Below the pieces are notes generated by a model. It was not told the DNA's origin and searched no databases. It worked only from the letters and a program-made list of their open reading frames with translations. DNA of 64,000 nt. Origin: Eledone cirrhosa. Its lineage: Eukaryota. Where the stretch lies: positions 4,030,001-4,094,000 of the forward strand of contig OZ024762.1 in the NCBI GenBank assembly GCA_964016885.1. The letters run 5' to 3'. Both the position numbers and the translations under genes were made by a program. Positions 2,908 through 28,840 of this stretch are shown piece after piece. The stretch's first letter is position 1. Each line of letters opens with the position of its first letter.

Positions 2908-3253
2908 ATAAATTAATAAAAACAAAGAACAAGTTCCTTATATTAAAAAATTCATCATTTTACGATCGTTTCTAGGATATATATATGTGTGGTGGTATGT
3001 ATATCATATAGATCTATGTAAAAATATTACAAACTATCAGAGGAAATATACATACCTTCACGTTATTTCTGAAGACAGCATATATATGTGTAGGTATGTA
3101 TATTCCCTCTGATAGTTTGTAAAATATTTACATAGATCTATATGATATACATACCAACACACACATATATATCCTAGAAACGATCGTAAAATGATGAATT
3201 TTTTTAATATAAGGAACTTGTTCTTTGTTTTTATTCATTGTTTTTATTAATTT
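2908..3253. repeat. ~150-bp-arm inverted repeat, Penelope-like pLTR fold-back
   Basis: 2908-3057 is nearly the reverse complement of 3092-3253. The ~35-nt spacer contains CTGAAGA, the 5' half of a hammerhead core. Flanked by (TA)n. Confidence 0.75.
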
Positions 3254-7698: not shown

Positions 7699-7806
7699 TA
7701 AGTATTTCCGAAGAAAACGCAAAGGAAAAAAGAGTGCTCTATGTATAAAACAGAGCTATTTAATTAGAAAGTCAACAACACAATATGTAACTACTCCATT
7801 ACCAAA

Positions 7807-7862
<56 letters not shown>

Positions 7863-7971: not shown

Positions 7972-8034
7972 ATTATATTTTGTCTGATGAGGACGTACTG
8001 TTGTACATCCGAAATATGTATAATAAAATGTAAT
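7972..8034 (+). ncRNA. Minimal type-I hammerhead ribozyme (Penelope-type), HHR1
   Basis: Stem I ATTATATTTTGT/ATAAAATGTAAT; CTGATGA at 7984-7990; stem II GGACGTAC-tgtt-GTACATCC; GAAA; quasi-palindromic stem III TATGTA; AUA site, cut after 8022. Confidence 0.85.
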
Positions 8035-8119
8035 TGATCAAAAGAACATCTATTTTATTAATACTTATATTTTAATATATATATATATATATATAAATAT
8101 ATATATATATGTTTATATA

Positions 8120-8256
8120 TTTGTTTCTATTTTTGGAACAAGGCCAGCAATTACCCAGTGCATTACTGGTACTATTTTATCGACCCCCCCCCCTCCCGTA
8201 AGGATGAAGGTGAAAGACAAAGTTAACCTCGGCGGGATTTGAACTCAGAATGGCAA
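8120..8256 (-). mobile_element. SINE family A, 5'-truncated
   Basis: Reverse-complement match to 1741-1858. Confidence 0.8.
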
Positions 8257-8310
8257 TATATATAATAAGTTGAGGGAACCAGCATGTATTTCACTGGTAG
8301 TACCTGTTAC

Positions 8311-8368
<58 letters not shown>

Positions 8369-8543
8369 GAAGATCTATTTAAATTGTTGGGATACAACAA
8401 GCAAATATTTTTATAACTGATATAAAGCACTCAACAAATAATTGGAGTAAACATACGATATTAACTATCCGGGAGCTTCCAACAGTAATGGTCGCATTCT
8501 TTAAGGGTATGTCAATATTTATTTATAAAACTGCTCTATATTA

Positions 8544-8608
8544 TATTTTATCTGAAGAAAGCACACCATAATCTAACTTGGTGTCCTTGAAATATGTATA
8601 ATGAAATA
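8544..8608 (+). ncRNA. Minimal type-I hammerhead ribozyme, HHR2
   Basis: Stem I TATTTTAT/ATGAAATA; CTGAAGA at 8552-8558; stem II AAGCACACCA-loop-TGGTGTCCTT; GAAA-TATGTA-TA; cut after 8600. Confidence 0.85.
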
Positions 8609-8647
8609 AATATGGTTTTATAAATATAGTTTCCATTTGTTAATATC

Positions 8648-8699
<52 letters not shown>

Positions 8700-8702
<3 letters not shown>

Positions 8703-9045
8703 GGAGGTGAGTTTTATTGTAGTACAATAAAGCAATGCAGATATCGGATAAGAAGCACTCTACAGTTTGTAGGACTGGAGTATACATAATATATAAGAAC
8801 AAAAGATGGTTAAAAGAGTTCCATGTATTTTATTATGCGCATTTCAAAAACAAATATTTCAAAAACAAATATCATGTTGATTTAATCATGTTGATTTAAA
8901 ACTGCACTATCCACAAGTGTTTTTTAACCTTCATATCATGTCTTCCTGTTTTATCTGATGAAAACACAAATATTATTGCATGATGATATTTGTTTTTGAA
9001 ATGCGCATAATAAAATACATGGAACTCTTTTAACCATCTTTTGTT

Positions 9046-9052
<7 letters not shown>
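8700..9052 (+). mobile_element. Penelope-like pLTR fragment with inverted partial copy, in (TA)n
   Basis: 8791-8856 is the reverse complement of 8985-9050; contains HHR3; a near-identical family member lies at 25717-26002. Confidence 0.75.
8947..9017 (+). ncRNA. Minimal type-I hammerhead ribozyme, HHR3
   Basis: Stem I TGTTTTAT/ATAAAATA; CTGATGA at 8955-8961; long stem II AAACACAAATATTATT-gcat-GATGATATTTGTTTTT; GAAA-TGCGCA-TA with palindromic stem III; cut after 9009. Confidence 0.88.
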
Positions 9053-9111
<59 letters not shown>

Positions 9112-13503: not shown

Positions 13504-13574
13504 TGACCTACATGGGAGTCGAACCCACATCTTTGGTTATCGCGACCACTGTGCTACCATTACACCAACACATC
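13504..13574 (-). pseudogene. tRNA-like sequence (tRNA pseudogene or SINE head)
   Basis: rc GATGTGTTGGTGTAATGGTAGCAC-AGTGGTCGCGATAACCA-AAGAT-GTGGGTTCGACTCCCAT-GTAGGTCA has an A box, D arm, anticodon arm and T arm; the acceptor stem pairs poorly. Confidence 0.6.
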
Positions 13575-14520: not shown

Positions 14521-14548
14521 GACCTTTCGGGCATAAGCCCTTCATCAG
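14521..14548 (-). ncRNA. Degenerate hammerhead core in a Penelope-like pLTR remnant
   Basis: rc CTGATGA-A-GGGC-ttat-GCCC-GAAA-GGTC: core and stem II are intact, but stems I and III do not pair. Confidence 0.5.
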
Positions 14549-14697
14549 GAGAAACGTGGAAAGGAAAAGAGTTCCGAGGGTGTGAGGGGAGTGGTGGAAA
14601 GACATTAAAAGGGGGGAAAAAATTAAAGGGAAGCAAAAAAAAAAAAAATTAAAATGAGGGTAAAAAAATTTAAAATGAAATCCTTGGTACAGTTAGG

Positions 14698-14730
<33 letters not shown>

Positions 14731-14732
<2 letters not shown>

Positions 14733-14933
14733 CAAAGGAATTGTGGTAAGGAACCAGATGGACCATAACGCACCAGAGTACTCAATACTCAGGGTAGTAG
14801 AGTGGAAAATAGGAAAATATATATATATATATATAGGAAAAAGTATGACCCCGAGGGCAGAGCTCTGCCGTCGGAGTCATACTTTTTCCTATTTTCCCCT
14901 CTACTACTCTGAAATCCTCGGTACAGTTAGGTA

Positions 14934-14965
<32 letters not shown>

Positions 14966-14987
14966 CCTAACTGTACCAAGGATTTCA
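14731..14987. mobile_element. Penelope-like pLTR family P, fold-back copy
   Basis: Palindrome centred on GGCAGAGCTCTGCC. Shares GAGTACTCTGGTGCGTTATGGTCCATCTGGTTCCTTACCAC with the copies at 18311, 22627 and 26342. Confidence 0.7.
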
Positions 14988-17994: not shown

Positions 17995-18310
17995 ATTTGT
18001 ATATATGTCTCTCTCTATATATATACACACACTCATATATAAATATATACATACTTAATGATGATTTTCCGGAGGAAGGGAACGGAAATAACTACAGTTA
18101 AATAAGGTATTCAGGATAAGAAGATAGATATTTATTTTATATAGAAATGACTTCGACGGGACTAGTACTGTTTCATTCTTTTGAAATCATTCTAGTAATG
18201 TACACGTCATTTCTATATGAAACACACATACACACACACATATATACACTTAACTTGGGTGTTTTCCCGATCACCATCGGGAATCCACCCCTAATTATAT
18301 ATATATATAT

Positions 18311-18559: not shown

Positions 18560-18732
18560 TTCTGATGCGTATTGGGAAGTGACAGCTGTTTAAAAAGGTA
18601 CTCAATACGTTAGTAGAGGATAGGTTTTCTATATTTTATATAGAAATGACTTGATTGTGTATGTGGTTATATATGACTGAAACCAATAAAAGGGTTTATA
18701 CACACACACACATACACACACACATATATATA

Positions 18733-22059: not shown

Positions 22060-22585
22060 TATCAAAATGAAATTCCAAAGGCAAGAGAGATAGATATATA
22101 TTGTTGTCGAAATGGCAAGAGCTCAGCTGTCGGGCCCCGACTTTCTAATATATATATAAATTTCTAATTATATATATATATTGTTTATATAAATCCAATG
22201 CAGGCTTAATCGTTTATTCGTTTTCTTTCTCTTTTCTTCTTTTGTTTCATTCGTTCTTTCTTGCCTTCTTCTTCTTCTTCGTCTTCTTTCTTCCCCCTTT
22301 TTCTCCTCTTCTTTTTCGTCTTCTTCATCAGATGTCGGAGAAGAAAATGATTATAATGCTGACGATAACAAAACAACAATATCAGACGAGCGCGAAGAAG
22401 CGGCGGAAGAAGGAGAATTAACAGGAAGTCTGTGCTTTTAAATCCTTTCTTTAGTTCAGGTTAAATAATCCCAACTGGTACTGAAGCAAAACCCCTCATA
22501 AAAAGAGCGGGGAGACACTTGTGGTGGTCGTCATTCTTTGTAATTGCTGCTGTTGTTGTTGCTTTATTCCCGAGAAACATGTATA

Positions 22586-22618
<33 letters not shown>

Positions 22619-22626
22619 TAAATATA

Positions 22627-22747
22627 TAGGAAAAAGTATGACCCCGACGGCAGAGCTCAAGCCGTTTCGACGGCTGTTTCTGGACAATGTACTGTAGGGT
22701 GTGTGTGTACGTTATGGTCCATCTGGTTCCTTACCACAATTCCTTCG

Positions 22748-22750
<3 letters not shown>
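22627..22750. mobile_element. Penelope-like pLTR family P, inverted split copy
   Basis: Minus-strand half hammerhead GTCCAGAAACAGCCGTC-GAAA-CGGC-ttgagctct-GCCG-TC, then a plus-strand tail CGTTATGGTCCATCTGGTTCCTTACCAC running into (TA)n. Confidence 0.7.
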
Positions 22751-22805
<55 letters not shown>

Positions 22806-23007
22806 TGATTAGTTTTTTCGTTGTTTTGGTATGGTGTGGTTGGGTTTTTTGCCTGCCGCAATTTTCAATTTGTCAAGCTATTTAAACGTAATGTTATTAC
22901 TCTAAGGACCTCTTACCCCTATTGAGTGCTTTGCTACTCATTCCTTATTGTAGGTCGACTTTGCTTGGCCACAGCCAAAGCTTCGATTTTACTAAGCTTC
23001 CACTTAT

Positions 23008-25432: not shown

Positions 25433-25577
25433 TGTAGAATGTAAAGCAGTCAGTCAGCTGGTTAAGGACTGCTATACTCACAAACCACTACAGTCATCAA
25501 TACTTTAACAGCCACTTCTCATATAGCAACAGCTAATATATCCATATCCATATATAAATATAACAGCTAGTACATAC

Positions 25578-25610
<33 letters not shown>

Positions 25611-25641
25611 CATACATACATACATATACATACATACATAC

Positions 25642-25716
<75 letters not shown>

Positions 25717-25721
<5 letters not shown>

Positions 25722-25998
25722 AGATCAAAAGATGGTTAAAAGAGTTCCATGTATTTTATTATGCGCATTTCAAAAACAAATATCATCATGCAATAACATT
25801 TGTGTTTTCATCAGATAAAATAGGAAGACATGATATGAAGGTTTAAAAACACTTGTGGATAGTGCAGTTTTAAATCAACATATCTTTTTAACCATCTTTT
25901 GATCTTATATATTATGTATACTCCAGTCCTACAAACTGTAGAGTGCTTCTTATCCGATATCTGCATTGCTTTATTGTACTACAATAAAACTCACCTCC

Positions 25999-26002
<4 letters not shown>
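25717..26002 (-). mobile_element. Penelope-like pLTR fragment with inverted partial copy (same family as 8700-9052)
   Basis: Near-identical to 8700-9052 in the opposite orientation; flanked by (TA)n. Confidence 0.75.
25752..25822 (-). ncRNA. Minimal type-I hammerhead ribozyme, HHR4 (paralogue of HHR3)
   Basis: rc TATTTTAT-CTGATGA-AAACACAAATGTTATTgcatGATGATATTTGTTTTT-GAAA-TGCGCA-TA-ATAAAATA with a perfect 8-bp stem I. Confidence 0.88.
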
Positions 26003-26044
<42 letters not shown>

Positions 26045-26069
26045 TGTAATAAACAACATAAGATAATTA

Positions 26070-26130
26070 TTTCATTTACCAGTGGTTTCTTGAAAGCAAA
26101 CAAAATTTGCTTTCAGTCATCAGAATGAAA
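26070..26130 (-). ncRNA. Type-I hammerhead ribozyme, HHR5
   Basis: rc TTTCATT-CTGATGA-cTGAAAGCAAA-ttttg-TTTGCTTTCAa-GAAA-CCACTGG-TA-AATGAAA: 7-bp stem I, 10-bp stem II with a C-A mismatch at its base, GUA site. Confidence 0.8.
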
Positions 26131-26304
26131 AAAATCGTGGTGTATTTATTGATAGTGGATTTTAAAAACATAACAAGCTCTGTAACCTACATAGAGCACT
26201 CTTTTTTCCTGGACCTTTCCGACGGAATTACTTCATTCACACATATATATATATATATATATAAATATATATAAATATACACACTTGGATATGCACACAC
26301 ATAC

Positions 26305-26341
<37 letters not shown>

Positions 26342-26345
<4 letters not shown>

Positions 26346-26541
26346 AGAAAGTATGACCCCGACGGCAGAGCTCAAGCCGTTTCGACGGGTATTTCTGGAC
26401 TCAGTCCAGAAATAACCATCGAAACGGCTTGAGCTCTGCCGTCGGGGTCATACTTTTCCCTATAACCCACTCTACTACTCTAAGTATTGAGTACTCTGGT
26501 GCGTTATGGTCCATCTGGTTCCTTACCACAACTCCTTCGTT
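26342..26541 (+). mobile_element. Penelope-like pLTR family P, palindromic copy with 3' half hammerhead
   Basis: ~58-bp arms around CTGGAC-tca-GTCCAG; right arm GAAA-CGGC-ttgagctct-GCCG-TC-GGGGTCA; tail runs into (TA)n. Confidence 0.78.
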
Positions 26542-26580
26542 ATATATATATATATATATATATAAATACATATATATATG

Positions 26581-26757
<177 letters not shown>

Positions 26758-27416
26758 GCAATATTTAATACACATACACACAATAGCTAATACACGCATA
26801 TACAATGGCTAATACATACACTCATATACAACAGCTAATACATACATGCACATATATGCATACACATACACAACAGCTAATACATATATATAAATATATA
26901 ACAGCTAATACATACACATATATATAACAGCTATTACACACATATACAATAGCTAATACATACACACACACATATATACAATAGTTAATACATACATACA
27001 CACACAGAGGCAACAGCTAATACATACATACACACACCAGCTAACTCACATACACACATACATACAATAGCTAACTCACACATACACTAACAGGCGTGTA
27101 CAGTTAACCACCACCGCTACTGTAATACAGCATCATGTGTCTGTATGCTAGAAACAACAGCTAAAATCTCCCTCCAAACACACATCATTTTAACAAAAGG
27201 TGAAACATTGGTTTATGTTTTTTACAATCACCCATAGTATATCTAGGAGGCATACTATGGCTGATTGTAAAAAAACAAATACAGCTTGAGATAGCTACAG
27301 CTGGAATACTGTTGATCATGCTCTGTTGGTGGATGGTGGCTGACCTAGGGCTAAACAACAACAGCAGCATCAGTGTTAGAAATACCAATAGCTAAAGAGG
27401 TCAGTGAAGGTATGTC

Positions 27417-28325: not shown

Positions 28326-28339
28326 GCGTCAGTATTGGT

Positions 28340-28525
28340 GGGGGATTGGCAGTATCGGTAGAGGGTCGGACGCCATGCTTTCCAGCATAGTTACGACCCT
28401 TTACGATCTGAGTTCAAATCCCGCCGAGGTTGACTTTGCCTTTCATCCTTACGGGGTCGATAAAATAAAGTACCAGTAATGCACTGGGTAATTGCTGGCC
28501 TTGTGCCAATAGTAGAAACAATTAT
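28340..28525 (+). mobile_element. SINE family A, near full length
   Basis: A box TGGCAGTATCGG, B box GAGTTCAAATCC, AATTA tail. Confidence 0.88.
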
Positions 28526-28655
28526 GTAAAATCTTTCCATTTTGCCTAATTTCTCCCTTTTTGGGGCCCTTTTTTTTCATGGTATTCCCTGCCTGGGGTT
28601 TTAGAGGTTGGCAGGTCTAATATAAGAGTTACTCTACATAAAAGTTATATATAAT

Positions 28656-28840
28656 TGTTTCTACTTTAGGCACAAGGCCAGCAATTACCCAGTGCATTAC
28701 TGGTACTTTATTTTATCGACCCCGTAAGGATGAAAGGCAAAGTCAACCTCGGCGGGATTTGAACTCAGATCGTAAAGGGACGTAACTATGCTAGAAAGCA
28801 TGGCGTCCGACCCTCTACTGATACTGCCAATCCACCGCCC
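28656..28840 (-). mobile_element. SINE family A, full length with 17-bp TSD
   Basis: TAAAAGTTATATATAAT at 28639-28655 and 28841-28857; head GGGCGGTGGATTGGCAGTATC. Confidence 0.92.

Follow-up and report, generated by a model that had tools for sequence, protein, structure and literature searches.

Hammerhead-bearing and fold-back modules within (TA)n tracts of Eledone cirrhosa DNA as probable insertion stubs of several Penelope-like families

The window, i.e., the whole 64,000-nt stretch of Eledone cirrhosa DNA analysed here, is microsatellite-rich animal DNA with 255 tandem-repeat rows and a GC content of 0.27 to 0.52; its short interspersed repeats appear octopus-like. The region described here contains three (TA)n-bounded modules that share a common build; on the hammerhead strand, this build consists of (TA)n, an inverted tail, an inverted copy of the 3′ end of the body, the 5′-truncated body itself, and (TA)n again. 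The first of these modules (module 4) is flanked by a (TA)n/(TACA)n tract (25571–25714) and comprises a 5′-truncated, hammerhead-bearing body on the minus strand (25712–25885), whose inner 3′ end abuts (TA)n, an inverted copy of the last 30 nt of this body (25886–25915, plus strand; 100% complementary to 25712–25741), and an 88-nt tail that is inverted relative to the body (25916–26003, plus strand). A (TA)19 tract (26003–26040) separates module 4 from module 5, which contains a hammerhead-bearing body (26041–26167, minus strand), an inverted copy of the last 7 nt of the body (26168–26174, plus strand), and a 69-nt tail (26175–26243, plus strand). The third module, a member of a family designated P, follows a (TA)n/(CA)n tract (26244–26342) and consists of a tail-less arm that represents the body (26343–26400, minus strand; its inner 3′ end also abuts (TA)n), a second fold-back arm that represents the inverted copy (26404–26463, plus strand), and a tail of approximately 78 nt (26464–26541, plus strand) flanked by a further (TA)n tract (26541–26760). 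The longest pure (TA) runs across the separating tracts are 14, 19, 16, and 34 units, respectively, in agreement with an earlier, first-pass annotation of this DNA, which had described (TA)n between all modules.

All hammerhead calls reported here are based on our own type I descriptor rather than on Rfam. This descriptor identified five motifs in the 64-kb window, including three on the plus strand (7972–9017) and two, HHR4 and HHR5, on the minus strand in modules 4 and 5, respectively; by comparison, 200 dinucleotide shuffles (2-kb blocks) contained 0.155 motifs on average and at most 2. A relaxed scan, allowing one core mismatch and a stem I of at least 6 bp, yielded nothing beyond these five motifs. 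Rfam returned no hammerhead family in the whole window, where a tRNA-like match was the only one at the gathering threshold, and none among the 48 sub-threshold matches obtained for 25600–26700 at E ≤ 5. HHR4 (25752–25822) has an 8-bp stem I, a long and interrupted stem II, a palindromic stem III, and an AUA site with a predicted cut between 25760 and 25759, while in HHR5 (26070–26130) stem I spans 7 bp, stem II spans 10 bp and follows a C·A mismatch, and the cut at the GUA site is predicted between 26077 and 26076. In both, stems I, II, and III connect the CUGANGA, GAAA, and UH boxes, and, judged by their sequence, both are real, complete type I hammerhead motifs; their cores are separated by 309 nt and their predicted cut sites by 317 nt. 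The first-pass annotation, which had placed two ribozymes about 320 nt apart on one strand and had assigned a GUA site and a 10-bp stem II to HHR5, was thus accurate in these respects; its description of both ribozymes as intact holds for the motif sequences but not for all predicted folds. HHR5 alone is predicted to adopt a three-way junction as its minimum-energy fold, and pairing of its stem I is predicted to decrease to approximately 0.08 within a minus-strand substrate covering 25700–26150. For stem III of HHR4, the predicted pair probability is 0.0, both as a monomer and in the 25700–26150 minus-strand transcript; this stem is predicted to form only in a dimer and, therefore, to need a like partner. 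Self-pairing of stem III is predicted to yield duplex energies of −10.5 kcal/mol for HHR4 and −8.2 kcal/mol for HHR5, as compared to 0.0 kcal/mol for the mixed duplex of the two. Two further observations concern hammerhead sequences elsewhere in the window. HHR1 to HHR4, which differ in sequence, present a 3-bp base of stem II followed by a C-containing mismatch and a longer helix (window positions 7972–9017), and the minus strand at 14523–14549 contains CUGAUGA, a 4-bp hairpin, and GAAA, without a matching stem I and away from (TA)n, possibly representing a remnant of another minimal hammerhead family.

The common build is also found in the plus-strand cluster (modules 2 and 3). For modules 2, 3, 4, and 5, respectively, body and inverted copy overlap exactly over 13, 69, 30, and 7 nt, and the tails measure 88, 90, 88, and 69 nt; among the three modules of the region described here, tails are thus 69–88 nt long and inverted copies 30, 7, and ~58 nt long (module 4, module 5, and P). 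Module 5 represents the weakest case, as its tail reading hangs on the 7-nt overlap, for which the probability of a chance occurrence anywhere in the island is approximately 0.03. Modules 3 and 4 are 97.6% identical over 167 nt, as expected from the reported near-identity of HHR4 and HHR3, and have the same body and tail; because their joints and neighbours differ, they represent separate insertions of one family, and duplication of the first cluster as the origin of the second is excluded on the same grounds. By contrast, blastn between modules 4 and 5 gave no match at E < 0.01, consistent with HHR5 being unrelated to HHR4. A (TA)6+ tract is located 31–41 nt away from each of the five hammerheads in the window, as compared to a background of 0.12 for a distance of 45 nt or less. 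The 5′ starts of the bodies of modules 3 and 4 nearly coincide (8866–8900 and 25865–25885) and joints in family P bunch at 26398–26409, hinting at a fixed RNA 5′ end, with possible ascertainment bias in both observations.

The fold-back of family P, reported previously as lying next to HHR5, is present at 26343–26461 (z of about −24, minus strand). In this module, the overlap between body and inverted copy (~58 nt) is as long as the body, and a fold-back therefore results; the structure is the overlap of body and inverted copy and no special ribozyme. Family-level support was assessed in public reads with the P stretch at 26384–26540 only, in four of eight listed public runs, none of the eight being an RNA run. 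Matches were found in 16,039 contig records of one run (X1), in 44 of a run bearing another organism label (X5), and in 21,231 and 22,015 reads of two RAD runs (X6 and X7); as RAD reads start at AATT sites and loci repeat, these read counts are not copy numbers. We found (TA)n directly after 26464 in 211 contigs and in 3,360 (X6) and 3,265 (X7) reads, and (TA)n after the end of the tail (loose ends at 26530 and 26537) in 137 and 50 contigs, 1,763 and 1,148 X6 reads, and 2,018 and 1,317 X7 reads, respectively. Family P thus has two discrete, family-wide 3′ ends, at 26464 and at approximately 26530–26540, each joined to (TA)n. Thirteen of the 15 displayed joints (20 were found) switch strand, each at its own pair of positions; nine of these 13 start at 26398–26409, which is only a hint, since upstream joints are invisible with this stretch and AATT read starts are located nearby. 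Depth in X1 decreases from approximately 401,000 to 10,500 upstream of 26403, a ~38-fold drop between bins 26402–26407 and 26396–26401, and the natural upstream sequence of P is AT-rich (125 X1 contigs with an agreement of 0.47, and one X5 contig). Centres of the fold-back also vary among copies in the window (26402, ~18362, and ~14860). Three details of P copies were observed in addition. The copy at 22625–22749 lacks the part of its second arm between the loop and the middle of the tail and has about 20 unrelated bases in its place, which looks like a deletion at the tip of the hairpin. The fold-back of the copy at 14732–14931 is centred on a 6-nt palindrome and has a short (TA)n between the end of the body and the tail, suggesting that the inner TA of the element is able to expand or to serve as a target. 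A short TA-adjacent repeat is present three times (14678–14700, 14912–14934, and 14964–14985), twice in direct and once in inverted orientation, and one of these copies truncates a P tail.

We consider the three non-coding modules to be independent insertion stubs of three Penelope-like families, likely formed from two target-primed cDNAs each, and assign this reading a probability of roughly 80%. The shared build was observed directly in all three modules, as were, for P, two (TA)n-joined 3′ ends and many different inversion joints; two target-primed cDNAs per insertion are inferred by analogy with the anole Poseidon protein (PMC11167929). In the mechanism envisaged, both strands of (TA)n would be nicked, as in the anole Poseidon system; one 3′ end would prime at the outer site and copy the tail plus a variable 7–69 nt, the other would prime at the inner site and copy the body with its hammerhead, and the two cDNA ends would then be joined. 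Where both cDNAs halt at about the same point, a near-perfect fold-back, such as that of P, would be produced. As an insertion would leave (TA)n on either side, later insertions may land in adjacent positions. Hammerheads would be passengers of the element end and are predicted to require a partner whose stem III palindrome matches their own; cooperation between neighbours from different families would therefore not be expected. The symmetric arms of P would also be explained by snap-back of a single cDNA, a process that could not yield modules 2–5, because these have a long arm without tail and a short arm with tail. A Penelope-like origin from several distinct families, as proposed in the first-pass annotation, is supported, the origin by the insertion architecture common to the stubs, which bear the structural marks of Penelope-like element (PLE) insertion ends. 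The role of (TA)n as a landing site, proposed at the same time, is likewise supported by the proximity of all five hammerheads to (TA)6+ and by P ends that abut (TA)n in thousands of reads. Candidate clades for these stubs, which are known here as non-coding sequence alone, include Neptune, Hydra, Penelope/Poseidon, and Naiad. Neither a reverse transcriptase nor a GIY-YIG domain was found among the 71 open reading frames of the window with Pfam (two weak matches fell below the cut-off), as expected for truncated stubs. Exact-pattern scans gave no match for the P motif in viral or metagenome contigs and no match for the HHR4 motif in metagenome contigs.

The proximity of two complete motifs on one strand raises the alternative of a functional multi-ribozyme cassette or chimeric retrozyme, in which a minus-strand transcript would be cut at HHR5 and HHR4 and the resulting 317-nt RNA would circularise and spread. 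The distance between the predicted cuts falls among the sizes described for retrozyme units in animals (PMC7229834). However, a cooperating HHR4/HHR5 cassette is unlikely because no mixed stem III dimer is predicted; in addition, the chimeric stem I of the 317-nt product would have only 4 of 8 pairs, with mismatches at positions 2 and 3, and HHR5 stem I is predicted to pair poorly in the 25700–26150 substrate. Retrozymes also require a tandem unit (PMC7229834; Li, Clavereau and Pollet 2026, 10.64898/2026.07.22.740005) of at least two tandem copies; no tandem repeat of a unit is present here, modules 4 and 5 do not align, and the module 4 family also occurs at 8699–9054 beside a different neighbour. 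The previously proposed cassette is thus, on these predictions, highly improbable as a functional unit.

For family P, two other origins were considered. The first-pass annotation had interpreted P as a palindromised half-ribozyme, and a related possibility is that P derives from a hammerhead that lost its 5′ half when template switching replaced this sequence, with GAAA, stem III, and GUC as the remainder. In the P arms, GAAA is indeed followed by a 4-bp stem and GUC, with pairing that appears by eye to be preserved in the divergent copy at 22107, and this element is located near the inner 3′ end in a position resembling that of true hammerheads. On the other hand, CUGANGA is absent from up to 80 nt upstream and up to 100 nt downstream in six of six P arms of the window; it is also absent from the 48 nt preceding GAAA in the AT-rich natural upstream sequence of P (public contigs, with 18 nt inside the stretch included), while the stem II regions of the five hammerheads of the window span at most 36 nt. 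Over the 48 nt upstream of GAAA, P thus does not qualify as a hammerhead, and the half-ribozyme label is unsupported, although a decayed origin or a more distant box is conceivable. The ~38-fold fall in X1 depth at 26396–26407 further indicates that the apparent 5′ arm of stem II in P belongs to the inverted copy only, and read depth and loose ends together exclude the central arms of P as a stem II; GAAA can also be read as the loop closing a small hairpin formed locally. Descent of P from a hammerhead is, therefore, an unlikely origin. Even less likely is an origin of P separate from that of the hammerhead modules, as a fold-back DNA transposon of the MITE type that targets TA sites. While the inverted arms of ~58 nt, the flanking TA, and the very high abundance of the family would fit such an element, MITEs have fixed terminal inverted repeats as both ends, and P has a 78-nt tail outside one arm, two alternative 3′ ends, centres that differ among window copies and among public reads, and a tail motif in common with the hammerhead modules. 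We consider this MITE-like reading largely refuted.

The tails of families that otherwise cannot be aligned contain a common motif, RCTC followed by 12–21 nt, GAGY, and RCT, which begins 2–6 nt past the inner 3′ end (25920–25947 in module 4, 26177–26200 in module 5, and 26469–26495 in P). In P reads, no variant was seen at 26489–26495, the seven downstream motif positions, among the variants listed (11 more exist), while the spacer varies. The motif was found at 9 of 15 loci overall, six of which had been used for its derivation; among held-out loci (3/9, p = 0.23) it was not enriched as a marker of (TA)n insertions. A conserved hairpin was rejected as an explanation, since a helix is predicted in only three of nine tails, suggesting a sequence motif rather than a structure. 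We regard its presence across families as a small new lead.

Another proposal of the first-pass annotation, that modules accumulate in one orientation, received mixed support. With module direction coded by the side of the tail and neighbours defined as adjacent modules less than 1 kb apart, all three modules described here have the same direction, as do all three at 7.7–9.1 kb, and in a strict module set for the window 5/5 adjacent pairs agree (p = 0.031), a set that contains both clusters that prompted the idea. When three looser modules were added (18050–18220, 18560–18650, and 22100–22148), agreement was 5/8 (p = 0.36), with all discordant pairs involving these three. This tally omits the HHR1 module, which may belong with a tail at 7700–7810 and whose inclusion gives 6/9 (p = 0.25), as well as the P copy at 14732–14931, which has tail sequence on both sides and is thus ambiguous in direction. 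Co-orientation of stubs across the window is, therefore, unproven. It is possible, though doubtful, that landing is polar, with a neighbouring stub setting the direction of a new insertion and thereby building co-oriented, cross-family (TA)n arrays, an effect compatible with, and additional to, the insertion-stub explanation. A possible cause would be an element protein that recognises tail DNA, as the Drosophila virilis endonuclease needed tail sequence for recognition and cleavage (PMC11167929). Concordance in the strict set and the shared tail motif favour this idea; the discordant looser modules, the inclusion of the idea-generating clusters in the strict set, the lack of any strand of its own in (TA)n, the absence of motif enrichment near (TA)n in held-out loci, and the small number of tails with a predicted helix weigh against it. 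More speculatively, and with a rather low likelihood, the motif with its near-palindromic end may represent a common cis-element bound by a dimeric protein, on RNA to set the inner start and on a DNA stub to orient the next insertion, such that (TA)n arrays would fill in a co-oriented manner with families both with and without hammerheads. No report of co-oriented hammerhead stubs in (TA)n was found in the literature searched, with subscription journals and repeat libraries outside its coverage. If the tail motif or cross-family co-orientation held genome-wide, this would provide a pointer to the binding signal of the protein and to a rule of target choice in Penelope biology.

Endonuclease-bearing PLEs (Naiad, Hydra, Neptune, and canonical PLEs) are described as having an inverted 5′-truncated copy, a tail at one end, and a bias for (TA)n or microsatellites (Craig et al. 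2021, PMC8557442; Arkhipova et al. 2013, PMC3846280), with the (TA)n bias reported for Naiad and Hydra and the microsatellite bias for Neptune (PMC8557442). The modules described here resemble these elements in that an inverted truncated copy is located on their 5′ side, only one end is extended, (TA)n is the target, and a hammerhead is found close to the 3′ end, but they are non-coding stubs of 200–290 nt in which no open reading frame was found, with tails of 69–90 nt across modules as compared to the published 30–40 bp. On AT-rich DNA, the Poseidon protein of Anolis carolinensis (PAc) nicks both strands and extends each of them, with reverse transcription beginning at two positions on either side of the tail; it is a predicted dimer, and the hammerhead was dispensable for in vitro insertion and showed cleavage only when the protein was present (Frangieh et al. 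2024, PMC11167929). Similarities to PAc include two discrete 3′ ends bounding the tail, an AT-rich target, a hammerhead upstream of the starts, and an AC-rich run that ends the tails of modules 2–5; in contrast, the evidence for PAc is biochemical, while here it consists of sequence and read ends, and the two ends are farther apart than in PAc. Family P provides read-level support, from another animal, for the two-start model derived from the anole protein, and the window as a whole represents a clean, if unexceptional, case of Penelope-like insertion structure, in which several families illustrate how products ranging from a 7-nt inversion to a complete fold-back can arise when the overlap between two cDNAs varies.

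For metazoan PLE hammerheads whose palindromic helix III is small, dimers are considered the active form, with poor cleavage by monomers (Cervera and de la Pena 2014, PMC4209133). HHR4 and HHR5 share with these type I hammerheads a full core, a 1–2-bp helix III, a palindromic loop, and a predicted need for dimerization, and differ, as predicted from sequence, in their long, interrupted (HHR4) or 10-bp (HHR5) stem II and in their AUA and GUA sites. Like animal non-LTR retrozymes (Cervera and de la Pena 2020, PMC7229834; 10.64898/2026.07.22.740005), the modules are short, non-coding, PLE-linked, and carry a type I hammerhead; unlike retrozymes, they have no single tandem unit, neighbours of different families are split by (TA)n, and the tail is inverted. 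According to the supplement of PMC8557442, Octopus Naiads prefer (TA)n and have no canonical hammerhead, features shared by family P but not by the hammerhead-bearing modules 4 and 5. However, an 11-nt P motif had no match in that supplement, and no match between P and the last ~600 nt of Naiad_Obim and Naiad_Ovul was evident by eye; the fit of P to Naiad is, therefore, limited to the missing hammerhead and (TA)n, as an N-terminal GIY-YIG open reading frame was not found and these two Octopus Naiad 3′ ends are unmatched. Among other cephalopods, recently active Penelope-like families have been described in Octopus vulgaris, with no mention of ribozymes in the passages considered from the main text (PMC13282606), and 235 hammerhead matches have been reported for the giant squid (PMC6962438).

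Several other features of the window were observed alongside the modules described above. The (TA)-adjacent modules at 18050–18220 and 18560–18650 have a 21-nt stretch in common, and both are opposite in direction to the P copy located between them; the former also contains inverted arms of 13 nt at 18139 and 18206. A TA-flanked island with a tail motif at 22805–23005, in which neither an inverted overlap nor a hammerhead was found, possibly represents another family. The tRNA-like Rfam match is located on the minus strand at 13504–13574 (34.4 bits) and is probably the head of a SINE. Two long inverted repeats, at 2945–3204 (117-nt arms) and 28337–28839 (200-nt arms), are both 95% complementary.
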